Assembly: GCA_002842855.1 (NCBI GenBank)
Contig: PHEE01000007.1
Location: 1,139 to 65,138 of the forward strand
DNA: 64,000 nt
Source: Alphaproteobacteria bacterium HGW-Alphaproteobacteria-4
Lineage (GTDB): Bacteria; Pseudomonadota; Alphaproteobacteria; Rhodobacterales; Rhodobacteraceae
Direction: 5' to 3'
Position numbers and translations under genes: made by a program. Under the pieces are notes generated by a model, which did no database searches, was not told the origin of the DNA, and saw nothing but the letters and a program-made list of their open reading frames with translations. Shown here one piece after another: positions 50,494-53,796 of the stretch; position 1 is the stretch's first letter, and each line of letters opens with the position of its first letter.

Positions 50494-50660
50494 TAGGGCG
50501 CGGAATCAATGCCGCCATGCGGAAACTGCATAACGGATGCTGACCTATTTTAAGCTGACGTAGCGGCATTTGCCTAAATCTTACGCGGGTTTGGCATGAT
50601 CTCTTGCGCTCGCGCACAATCGCGGCAGAGTGCGCGGTGTCAACAGCGGCGGAGTGTCAC

Positions 50661-51716
50661 ATGGGTGTTACCAAAGAGCAGGTGCTGGCGGTTCTGGCCG
50701 AGGTTCCGGCGCCGGGTGGCGGCACCCTGACCTCTCGCGACATGGTGCGCGCGATGGGAATCGAGGGCGGCGAGGTGCGCTTTGTGCTTGAGGCCGATTC
50801 GCCTGAAATGGCAAGGCTGCTTGAAACGCAGCGCCCCGAGATCGAGGCGAGACTGCGGGCTTTGCCGGGGGTGGTCAGCGTTTCGGTGGCCACCACGGCG
50901 CAGGCGGCGGCCCCGAGCCTGAAGATCGGCGGCCACCCCAAGCCGCAAGCGGGGCCACAGGCAATACCGGGTGTGGCGCGGGTGCTGGCGGTGGGGTCGG
51001 GCAAGGGCGGGGTCGGCAAATCGACCGTTGCCTCGAACCTTGCGGTGGCACTGGCACGGGCGGGGCGCAAGGTCGGGCTGCTTGATGCCGACATTTACGG
51101 GCCCAGCCAACCGCGCATGATGGGGGTGAACCGCCGCCCCGCCAGCCCCGATGGCAAGACCATACTTCCACTGGTGGCGCATGGCGTTACGATGATGTCG
51201 ATCGGGCTGATGCTGCGCGATGGCGAAGCGGTGATCTGGCGCGGCCCGATGCTGATGGGGGCGATGCAGCAGATGCTGGGGCAGGTGGCCTGGGGCGAGC
51301 TGGATGTGCTGATCGTCGATCTGCCGCCGGGCACGGGCGATGTGCAGATGTCGCTTGCGCAAAAAGTGCCGGTCACCGGGGCGCTGGTGGTATCAACCCC
51401 GCAGGATGTGGCGCTGATCGATGCGCGCCGCGCGCTTGACATGTTCGCCAAGCTCAAGGTGCCGGTGGTCGGGCTGATCGAGAACATGTCTACCTATATC
51501 TGCCCGAATTGCGGGCACGAAGCGCATCTGTTTGGCCACGGCGGGGTTGCTGCCGAGGCGGCGACGCTGGGGCTGCCGTTTCTGGGCGAGCTGCCGCTTG
51601 ACCTTGCGGTGCGGCTGGCGGGCGATGCGGGCAGGCCGATTGCGGCGGGCGACGGGCCGGTGGCCGAGGCCTATGCCCGGCTCGCGGCCGCTTTGGTGGC
51701 GGAAGGCGCCGCCTGA
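50661..51716 (+). CDS. apbC: Iron-sulfur cluster carrier ATPase (Mrp/ApbC/NBP35 family)
   Basis: ATG 50661. N-terminal DUF59-like domain, deviant Walker A GSGKGGVGKST, CPNC motif. Confidence 0.92.
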   Translation: MGVTKEQVLAVLAEVPAPGGGTLTSRDMVRAMGIEGGEVRFVLEADSPEMARLLETQRPEIEARLRALPGVVSVSVATTAQAAAPSLKIGGHPKPQAGPQAIPGVARVLAVGSGKGGVGKSTVASNLAVALARAGRKVGLLDADIYGPSQPRMMGVNRRPASPDGKTILPLVAHGVTMMSIGLMLRDGEAVIWRGPMLMGAMQQMLGQVAWGELDVLIVDLPPGTGDVQMSLAQKVPVTGALVVSTPQDVALIDARRALDMFAKLKVPVVGLIENMSTYICPNCGHEAHLFGHGGVAAEAATLGLPFLGELPLDLAVRLAGDAGRPIAAGDGPVAEAYARLAAALVAEGAA

Positions 51717-52020
51717 GCGGGAAAACGCGCCCCGGCACGGGAAATTGCGGGACCGGGCACAATCGGCGTGGTCAAAACGAATCACTTCGGGGTGATTCGA
51801 ACGTCGGCGCGCCAATTGTTCCCTTAATGTTTTCCTTAATATTCAGATTGCCGCGCTTTTGGCAGAAAACATCGCGCGCCGCATGGGAATGGGGTGCTGC
51901 GCATCTGTTTACTATATTTAGTGGTGGTAACAACATTGACCGCTACCCTTGCTAAGCCAAGGCGTGAATTCGGCACAATACCTTGTTTTTGAGAGGGCTT
52001 CGACACCACATCTGCGGTAT

Positions 52021-52070
52021 TCACCCATAAATTCCTGTTGCTTCCCGTAAATTCCCACGATATCCCTTGT
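52021..52070. promoter_or_regulatory. Five 10-bp-phased direct repeats (CACCCA, TTCCTG, TTCCCG, TTCCCA, ATCCCT), a MraZ-box-like array in the dcw leader/promoter region
   Basis: The CCC/CCT cores lie at 52024, 52034, 52044, 52054 and 52064. The reverse complement reads TGGGT/NGGGA/CAGGA units at helical-turn spacing. Confidence 0.45.
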
Positions 52071-52074
52071 TCAT

Positions 52075-52279
52075 CGAAGAAGGCGGGCTCAACGGGACGC
52101 AAGATCCCAAAGGCGACTAGCAGGTTTCATACAGGCACCCGACTTTGTTCGAACCAAGAGATCCGGCGCGCGAGCGAGCAGACATCCCCCCAGGTGGCGC
52201 GCGTAGTCGGACATACCCAGCGATGGGACGAGGGCGGCGGATCGGGCAGTGGCAGCGGCCCGACCGCCGTTTCTCTTTG
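52075..52279 (+). ncRNA. UpsM-like leader sRNA of the dcw operon (5' end approximate)
   Basis: An intrinsic terminator ends at 52279, 33 nt before mraZ. The phased repeats/promoter region lie about 200 nt upstream. The architecture matches the R. sphaeroides mraZ leader sRNA. The TSS was not determinable from sequence. Confidence 0.35.
52233..52279 (+). terminator. Intrinsic terminator inside the mraZ 5' leader
   Basis: Bulged stem GGCGG(CGGA)TCGGGC-loop-GCCCGACCGCC followed by GTTTCTCTTTG. Confidence 0.65.
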
Positions 52280-52311
52280 AAACGGGGCCGGAAACGAAGG
52301 AGCGCGGGCCC

Positions 52312-52815
52312 TTGGCACGCAGGTTCAGAGGCTCGGAGACGTACAAGGTCGATGCGAAGGGTCGCGTTTCGATCCCCGCCGCCTTTCGTCGCGTGATCGA
52401 GTCGTGCGACCCCGACTGGGTTCCCGGCAACCGCCCCAACATCGTCATCGTCTACGGCCCTGAACAGCAGACTTGGATTGAGGTCTATACGATCAAGGCG
52501 ATCGAAGAGATCGACGAGGAAATCGACCTGATGCAGCGCAATTCACCCGACCGCCTGCGGTTGGAAGAGTGGATGCACGGGCAGGCGCTGGAAGCGCAAA
52601 TTGACGATGATGGCCGCCTCGTGCTGCCGCAGAAGGTGCGCGACAAGATCGGGCTTGAGGGCGAGGCGTTCTTCATTTCGGCGGGCGATTATTTCAAGAT
52701 CTGGAAGCCGGAGACCTATCAGGCGCATTACGCCGAACGTTCGCGCAAGCTGGCCGAGCAATACCCTGAAGATTTCGACCCGCGCAGCCTTCTGCCCGGC
52801 CGACCGAGGGGGTAG
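52312..52815 (+). CDS. mraZ: Transcriptional regulator MraZ
   Basis: TTG 52312, 9 nt after GAAGGAG. LARRFRGSETYKVDAKGRVSIPAAFRR... with a duplicated SpoVT/AbrB-like module (second copy DDDGRLVLPQKVR). Confidence 0.9.
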   Translation: MARRFRGSETYKVDAKGRVSIPAAFRRVIESCDPDWVPGNRPNIVIVYGPEQQTWIEVYTIKAIEEIDEEIDLMQRNSPDRLRLEEWMHGQALEAQIDDDGRLVLPQKVRDKIGLEGEAFFISAGDYFKIWKPETYQAHYAERSRKLAEQYPEDFDPRSLLPGRPRG

Positions 52816-52818
52816 GCG

Positions 52819-53796
52819 ATGCCCACCCCAACCGACGCCCCGCACATTCCGGTTCTCATCCGCCCGCTGATCGCGGCGGTTTCGCCCGTATCAGGGCTAT
52901 GGCTTGACGGCACCTTTGGCGCCGGTGGCTATGCGCGCGCGCTTTTGGCCGCTGGTGCCGAGGCGGTGATCGGCATCGACCGGGACCCTTCGGTGTTCGC
53001 CATGGCGGCGCCCTTGGCGGCCGCGTACGGTGATCGGTTGCGGCTGGTCGAGGGCACCTTTTCCGACCTTGACCGCCTGGCGGGCGTGCCACTCGATGGC
53101 GTCGTGCTCGACCTCGGGGTGTCCTCGATGCAACTCGACCAGCCCGAACGCGGGTTTTCGTTTCTGCGCGATGGTCCGCTGGATATGCGCATGGCGGGTG
53201 ACGGGCCATCGGCTGCCGACCTGCTCAACCACGCGTCGGAAACCGAGATTGCCGACATCCTGTATCACTACGGCGAAGAACGTGCGGCGCGGCGTATCGC
53301 CCGCGCCATCATCGCCGCGCGCCCGCTGGCGCGCACCGGTGATCTGGTGCAGGCAGTCGAGCGGTGCCTGCCGCGCGCCAAGCCGGGGCAAAGCCACCCC
53401 GCAACGCGCAGTTTTCAGGCGATCCGCATCTGGGTCAACGACGAGTTCGGCCAGCTGATCGCGGGGCTGGAGGCGGCCGAACGCGCGCTCAAACCCGGCG
53501 GATGGCTGGCGGTCGTCAGTTTTCATTCGCTTGAAGACCGGGTGGTGAAACGCTTTTTTCAGGCGCGTTCGGGCGCCGAGGGTCAGGCCAGCCGCCATGC
53601 CCCCGCCCGTGCCATGGTGGTGCCGGCGTTCACCAATGTTTCCAAGGCGATCGGCCCCGACGCAGAGGAGCTTGCCGCCAACCCTCGTGCGCGCTCGGCG
53701 AAATTGCGCCTTGCGCGCCGAAGCGATGCCCCGGCTGGCCACAGCGCCCGCGCCAGCCTTGGCCTTCCCGCCCCCGCGCTGAAAGGAGAGCATTGA
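52819..53796 (+). CDS. rsmH: 16S rRNA (cytosine1402-N4)-methyltransferase
   Basis: [24 protein letters not shown] motifs; 325 aa. Confidence 0.95.

Follow-up and report, generated by a model that had tools for sequence, protein, structure and literature searches.

The operator of MraZ at Pmra of Escherichia coli, as reportedly described by Eraso et al. in 2014, is made up of three TGGGN direct repeats that are separated by 5-nt spacers. The MraZ repeats of Bacillus subtilis are three copies of GTGG[A/T]G with 4-nt spacers (bioRxiv 10.1101/2022.02.09.479790), and those of Mycoplasma are four copies of GTG(G/T) with 6-nt spacers (PMC12957436).

A second system that bears on the region analyzed here is the small RNA UpsM of Rhodobacter sphaeroides. 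Weber et al. reported that the mraZ 5' UTR of this organism is 268 nt long and contains a Rho-independent terminator that gives rise to the 206-nt UpsM, with a read-through of about 1 in 100, and that reporter fusions and 5' RACE revealed no separate mraZ promoter (PMC5089854). A long terminated leader in front of an mraZ gene without its own start site is a feature of Rhodobacteraceae, and the 3' part of this leader is conserved (PMC5089854, PMC8266604). UpsM was also found in R. capsulatus (PMC5546546), and has been reported as the most abundant Hfq-binding sRNA of R. sphaeroides. Gruetzner et al. found that the sRNA StsR triggers the cleavage of UpsM by RNase E into pieces of 76 nt and 130 nt, a processing that is Hfq- and StsR-dependent in R. 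sphaeroides, and identified mraY and ftsW as targets of the 130-nt piece (PMC8266604).

Gene context of the apbC-mraZ intergenic region

In the window, which is the whole 64-kb stretch of DNA analyzed in this study, apbC (50604-51716, ending with its stop codon at 51716), an intergenic gap, mraZ, rsmH, a small ftsL-like ORF and ftsI follow each other on the plus strand. The preliminary description of this DNA had reported an AT-rich gap of about 595 bp between apbC and mraZ, and this was also what we observed: the gap measures 595 bp (51717-52311), with the TTG start codon of mraZ at 52312, and its GC content goes down to 0.48 in the segment 51800-52099, compared with 0.62-0.74 in the flanking genes.

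Several additional elements were noticed in the part of the gap that is proximal to apbC. A hairpin, GAATCAC-TTCGGG-GTGATTC, is located at 51779-51798, 63 nt past the apbC stop codon; it has no U-tail, and both of its arms contain a GANTC (CcrM-type) site. The direct repeat CCTTAAT occurs twice, 12 bp apart, at 51822-51840 (TTAA-N8-TTAA), a spacing that is one base off that of CtrA half-sites and that is kept in the closest relative only. Finally, blocks conserved within the genus lie 5' of the promoter at 51909-51989 (TTTACYATATYTAGT, ACCGCTACCCTTGC and GGCACAATMCCTTGTTTT), the last of which is similar to a sigma-54 -24/-12 element with the spacing off by one.

MraZ protein and its start codon

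The mraZ gene (52312-52815, plus strand) encodes a protein of 167 amino acids that begins with TTG behind the Shine-Dalgarno sequence GAAGGAG (52296-52302, plus strand). TTG 52312 is most likely the start of this frame, because most homologues are 167 amino acids long, the start codons of relatives align at this position and the Shine-Dalgarno sequence is found in front of it. The stored gene call gives 188 amino acids from a GTG at 52249, which lies within the terminator hairpin described below, and the Phaeovulum homologue has been called in the same way. Considering the 167-amino-acid homologues and the Shine-Dalgarno sequence, which favor TTG 52312, this annotation is probably 21 codons too long.

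The closest named MraZ proteins were those of Phaeovulum, Albidovulum and Defluviimonas, which assigns the organism to the Rhodobacteraceae/Paracoccaceae. When aligned to M. pneumoniae MraZ, the protein encoded in the window was found to retain D14-x-K16-x-R18 and the second motif, D-x-x-G-R, that is, both DXXXR motifs together with the DNA-reading lysine. In the complex of M. genitalium MraZ, the corresponding Asp-x-Lys-x-Arg and Asp-x-x-Gly-Arg residues contact the TG(T/G) core (PMC12957436).

Phased boxes interleaved with a predicted promoter

A putative MraZ operator was found in the gap, consisting of five boxes of 10 bp each (52022-52031, 52032-52041, 52042-52051, 52052-52061 and 52062-52071). 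Their plus-strand cores, CCC at 52024, CCT at 52034 and CCC at 52044, 52054 and 52064, are exactly 10 bp apart, and the five direct repeats with exact 10-bp phasing that the preliminary description had proposed are thus present where it had placed them. It had further read their reverse complements as TGGGT/NGGGA, which is correct for boxes 1, 3, 4 and 5 (TGGGT, CGGGA, TGGGA within GTGGGA, and AGGGA on the minus strand) but not for the degenerate box 2 (CAGGA). The 64-kb window contains the five-box pattern a single time, and 100 dinucleotide shuffles did not produce it at all.

We also scored the genome with a 10-column matrix whose input was boxes 3 and 4 from 50 relatives that do not belong to this genus. 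For two, three, four and five phased boxes alike, the array in the window ranked first among all sites of the 3.15-Mb genome. The five-box score reached 37.5 bits at this locus versus 8.2 bits at the best other locus, and the three-box score was 28.6 bits versus 18.5 bits at the next one. The second-best two-box match of the genome (17.1 bits; contig C52, 52305-52324, TTCCCACGGAATCCCTTGTT) lies in G+C-rich and apparently coding DNA, and is probably a look-alike that arose by chance.

A simple sigma-70 scan called no promoter at the locus; the promoter was placed on the basis of conservation instead. A -35-like hexamer, TTGCTT (52038-52043, plus strand), is located between boxes 2 and 3 and belongs to a family- and class-wide pattern, TTGMNT/TTGAC, whereas a -10-like hexamer, TATCCC (52061-52066, plus strand), follows 17 nt past it and overlaps box 5. 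This proposed -10 element is without the usual final T, and the A at its second position is invariant in 56 loci. Together, the two hexamers may act as a promoter with a predicted transcription start near A52073. Compared with E. coli, the boxes are found on the other strand, and they overlap the -35/-10 region instead of following the promoter. The preliminary description had placed the bulged GC stem about 165 nt past the boxes; the boxes themselves do not lie that far upstream of the leader but would be part of its own promoter.

Occurrence of the box array in Rhodobacteraceae and other Alphaproteobacteria

The consensus of 56 loci of the family was AAAAnnCnGTTGCKTCCCATGAAWTCCCATGGCATCCCTn...CACGATGAGGACGGGC. 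Its layout comprises a -35-like TTGMNT, a 17-nt spacer that contains boxes 3 and 4, and a weak -10 element (CATCCC or CATACC; TATCCC in the window) with an A at the second position throughout. Boxes 3 and 4 hardly ever deviate from TCCCATG in these loci, which gives a minus-strand family consensus of CATGGGA. Fifty of the 56 family loci scored above 12 bits, a count that is circular because the matrix itself was built from family sequences, whereas the counts in outgroups are not affected in this way.

Among 33 other alphaproteobacterial families (12 sampled as relatives, 19 across the class, and G055; sister-family G041 was the exception), the array was present before mraZ in 32. The module found in the 12 and 19 families was TTGACnCCCATGnnnTCCCATGnTATCCCAT. 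The outgroup arrays of at least three boxes scored 12-38.5 bits and were always in the identical orientation, and the rest of each 3-kb locus did not exceed 9.3 bits with the same matrix. The array lay 35-166 nt before mraZ in the outgroups, whereas the median distance within the family was 294 nt. In addition, we analyzed three genomes without detectable mraZ (G049, G434 and G450, which are 91-99% complete) and found no array around rsmH, the best score being 5.6 bits. The array therefore co-occurs with mraZ, in 32 of the 33 mraZ-bearing outgroup families and in none of the three genomes that are devoid of the gene.

Some loci showed a different arrangement. In five members of the family, L087, L016, L013, L028 and L041, box 3 is inverted (TGGGRG), such that boxes 3 and 4 form the palindrome TGGGA-N5-TCCCA and not a direct repeat. 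The sister-family member G041 (L189) is without the array and instead has coding-strand GTGGGG/ATGGCA boxes after a TTGACT-N17-CATAGA promoter; these (GTGGGGCGAA ATGGCATGAA) are found about 230-260 nt before mraZ, just past the promoter, in an E. coli-like layout. In G020 (L173), coding-strand repeats AAGTGGGCCA AAGTGGCCTA AAGTGGCTTG lie about 300-340 nt before mraZ. We considered whether the divergent MraZ of G020, with its sense-strand AAGTGG boxes, might be an E. coli-like import, and rejected the idea, since this protein is 30% identical to the MraZ of the window and 22% identical to that of E. coli.

Probable assignment of the boxes to MraZ

Comparison of the minus-strand reading CATGGGA with the characterized operators indicated that the period, core and copy number of the array match those of the MraZ repeats of E. 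coli, B. subtilis and Mycoplasma. The resemblance to the E. coli boxes that had been suggested at the outset is supported both by the core and the period and by the class-wide occurrence of such arrays at mraZ promoters together with mraZ itself. It appears most likely that the array is an MraZ operator which lies over the promoter and points opposite to that of E. coli.

On the other hand, the boxes might be read by another factor, for example NtrX, CenR or a cell-cycle regulator, or might be mere core-promoter or bent-DNA elements, which we regard as unlikely. ChIP-seq placed NtrX and CenR at the mraZ promoter of R. sphaeroides (PMC7240162, PMC9275681), but the gap contains none of the motifs for NtrX (GCA-N9-TGC), CenR (TGA-N8-TGA) or CtrA (TTAA-N7-TTAA) and no DnaA-box pattern; moreover, a dedicated local regulator fits better than a global one because the array is unique in the genome. 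Selection on the promoter alone could account for part of the sequence constraint, as the boxes fall on the -35/-10 region, yet RNA polymerase by itself needs no repeated TCCCAT at the helical period. Binding of MraZ to these boxes is predicted from sequence; their core agrees with experimentally defined MraZ boxes, and the genomes without mraZ have no such arrays. In the freely accessible literature that we searched, no description of alphaproteobacterial MraZ boxes was found, and PMC5089854 and PMC8266604 mention neither MraZ boxes at the UpsM promoter nor autoregulation.

A conserved predicted leader RNA that ends in an intrinsic terminator

The region in front of mraZ would give rise to a UpsM-type leader sRNA of about 207 nt (52073-52279, plus strand, as are all elements of the leader), whose two predicted ends are the transcription start and the last nucleotide of a U-tail. 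The distance between these ends was 178-269 nt across 56 loci. First, a 5' hairpin, GGGA-N7-UCCC (52094-52108), shows covariation, with GC changed to AU at two pairs in 6 sequences. It is followed by a near-invariant and apparently unpaired 21-nt motif, CAGGUUUCAUACAGGCACCCG (52121-52141), which emerged from the leader alignment, and by a variable A/U-rich linker (52142-52160). The distance of this linker from the predicted start is about 76 nt, which corresponds, as a positional analogy only, to the site of the RNase E cut in R. sphaeroides UpsM. Next, a middle stem-loop (52162-52211) carries a conserved C-rich loop, CAUCCCCCCAGGUGG, with alignment columns 180-184 pairing with 228-232. The small hairpin CCCA-GCGA-UGGG (52216-52227) was not predicted by RNAalifold, but an A-U to G-C change (CCCG...CGGG) could be recognized by eye in relatives. 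Finally, folding and covariation point to an intrinsic terminator at 52234-52279, in which a bulged G+C stem (52234-52269) is joined to the tail UUUCUCUUUG. For the terminator hairpin (52230/52234-52269), a folding energy of -31.9 kcal/mol (z = -3.6) was calculated. Directly behind it, UUUCUCUUU occupies 52270-52279, so that the U-tail ends 32 nt before the TTG of mraZ, with the Shine-Dalgarno sequence included in this distance.

An alignment of 53 leaders gave 28 consensus pairs with RNAalifold, 18 of which had compensatory changes, mainly in the terminator. For instance, pair 285/307 was CG in 28 and UA in 24 sequences, pair 288/305 was AU in 30 and GC in 19, and pair 289/304 was GC in 35, UA in 12 and AU in 5. 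The preliminary description had claimed a bulged GC stem with a U-tail inside the leader, just before mraZ; the stability and the covariation of the stem, and the 32 nt between tail and gene, agree with this.

The leader was matched by BLASTN in 28 of 36 genomes of the family and in none of six sister-family genomes, and 18 other families yielded one weak match of 35 nt. Two of the family genomes that were missed by BLASTN still have the motif and the terminator, as judged by eye. A query 14-mer taken from the invariant motif was too unspecific at the scale of the scan; approximately 25 named Rhodobacteraceae loci were obtained, and the named loci with the leader include Paracoccus, Rhodobacter, Salipiger and Thalassovita. 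When 51000-53000 was compared with Rfam 15 at permissive settings, only chance matches were returned, with no UpsM family and no riboswitch.

We also used the published R. sphaeroides sequences for comparison. The terminator-tail primer could be placed on relatives' terminators with 4-6 edits in 24; in the leader of the window itself, no match within 8 edits was obtained, and the UpsM Northern probe could not be aligned to any of these leaders. Four pattern matches obtained with the primer and probe sequences were in unrelated genes rather than the UpsM locus, and were discarded. Homology to the type UpsM of R. sphaeroides is suggested by the architecture, the taxon and the statements of the paper, not by direct alignment. 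In this sense, the UpsM-like arrangement put forward in the preliminary description is supported by comparison, as predicted length, position and taxonomic range are those described for UpsM (PMC5089854, PMC8266604).

Relationship between the leader RNA and mraZ expression

It could be argued that the conserved RNA is an independent sRNA gene with its own terminator that stands before mraZ by chance, in which case mraZ would have a separate promoter and no attenuation would take place. UpsM was indeed first described as an orphan sRNA (PMC5089854), and read-through at the present locus is something that we infer. However, a separate mraZ promoter would not fit, because the tail and the start codon are only 32 nt apart and the Shine-Dalgarno sequence lies in this interval; furthermore, the class-wide promoter-and-box module of mraZ is found upstream of the RNA and not downstream of it, and reporter fusions and 5' RACE in R. 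sphaeroides detected no promoter between UpsM and mraZ (PMC5089854). An independent gene is therefore very improbable. The idea of a ligand-sensing riboswitch or of a leader-peptide attenuator, in which refolding or the translation of a small ORF would control the terminator, can hardly be sustained either: the leader core is very strongly conserved and Weber et al. raised riboswitch-like refolding for R. sphaeroides, but this refolding is not conserved among Rhodobacteraceae (PMC5089854), no riboswitch was matched in Rfam, and RNAalifold proposed no conserved anti-terminator for the 53 leaders, while the ATG at 52223, which opens a frame running through the terminator, lies inside the small hairpin without a Shine-Dalgarno sequence and is replaced in many relatives (CCCGGAAACGGG), and small-ORF translation had little effect in R. 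sphaeroides (PMC8266604). The small ORF from ATG 52223, being neither conserved nor preceded by a Shine-Dalgarno sequence, was accordingly rejected.

Discussion

In this study, we analyzed the region upstream of mraZ in a member of Rhodobacteraceae and compared it with the corresponding regions of other Alphaproteobacteria. We consider it likely that this region is an mraZ/dcw control region of the Rhodobacteraceae type in which two layers are stacked, a promoter/operator and a leader/terminator. In the first layer, a sigma-70-type promoter, TTGCTT-N17-TATCCC, with a start near 52073, would be interleaved with the five 10-bp phased boxes. MraZ oligomers might line up on one side of the helix, each box being taken by a single subunit, and the bound protein would then cover the -35/-10 region and repress its own promoter. 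In the second layer, transcripts would start with the conserved and structured leader of about 207 nt, at the end of which, 32 nt short of mraZ, stands a strong intrinsic terminator. The majority of transcripts would stop there and release a UpsM-like small RNA, and those that read through would carry a 239-nt 5' UTR into mraZ-rsmH-ftsL-ftsI and further genes. By analogy with R. sphaeroides, the RNA may also be processed by way of StsR and RNase E and may act in trans; both features are carried over from that organism.

However, repression by MraZ must be squared with the very high level of UpsM that has been reported in R. sphaeroides. A possible answer is that a read-through of about 1% keeps MraZ low despite repression. 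More tentatively, and with slightly more doubt than confidence, we suggest that the alphaproteobacterial mraZ promoter is an ancient 'operator inside the promoter', in which antisense-strand ATGGGA boxes alternate with the -35 and -10 elements, and that Rhodobacteraceae inserted the terminated UpsM leader behind it. If this is true, the autorepression of MraZ would set the level of UpsM: with approximately 99% termination, the promoter would need to initiate about a hundredfold more frequently for MraZ to attain its set point, and the abundance of the sRNA would be coupled to the homeostasis of a regulator of division genes.

These results may be of interest in several respects. First, the locus would be one more, uncatalogued copy of UpsM, an RNA for which Rfam has no model. 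Second, a single, highly conserved box array is a hallmark of the mraZ promoter, seen in 32 of 33 sampled alphaproteobacterial families other than Rhodobacteraceae and in most Rhodobacteraceae loci examined, and this array provides a concrete candidate operator for MraZ-binding tests in a class where MraZ is uncharacterized. Third, the UpsM promoter is placed under a probable MraZ feedback loop, which raises the testable question of whether MraZ controls UpsM levels and thereby the StsR/UpsM-dependent control of division genes. Beyond PMC5089854 and PMC8266604, the addition is probably a modest one, namely the MraZ-type boxes at the UpsM promoter.

With regard to the closest described RNA, the locus shares with UpsM (RSs0682) of Rhodobacter (Cereibacter) sphaeroides the family and the order of promoter, structured RNA of about 200 nt, intrinsic terminator and mraZ. 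The predicted length is 207 nt as against 206 nt, the 3' two-thirds of the leader are conserved with covariation across the family, and a separate mraZ promoter would find no room. The two loci differ in the distance from the terminator to mraZ, which is 32 nt in the window but about 62 nt in R. sphaeroides; because the terminator is nearer to mraZ, the 5' UTR would be about 239 nt long instead of 268 nt. By these comparisons, the locus is a further predicted copy of the known UpsM leader family, and is ordinary for its family.

With regard to known MraZ operators, the array resembles that of E. coli in its 10-bp period, its (A/G)TGGGA core, its copy number of at least three and its position at the promoter of an mraZ-headed operon. 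Box 4 of the window, which reads GTGGGAATTT on the minus strand, differs in one base in ten from the first box of the E. coli K-12 operator (GTGGGAAATT GTGGGGCAAA GTGGGAATAA). However, there are five boxes in the window versus three in E. coli, where they are on the coding strand, downstream of the -10 element and inside a 38-nt 5' UTR, whereas those of the window occupy the other strand and are interspersed with the -35 and -10 elements. In common with B. subtilis and Mycoplasma, the boxes are direct repeats at the helical period and the residues that read the TG(T/G) core are kept in MraZ of the window; a further parallel to B. subtilis is that the genome has only one such array. Unlike in these two systems, the first core base of the alphaproteobacterial boxes is mostly A and not G (ATGGGA), and their orientation to transcription is reversed. 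The opposite strand and the overlap with the promoter are a difference of layout, and do not make the array a different kind of site.
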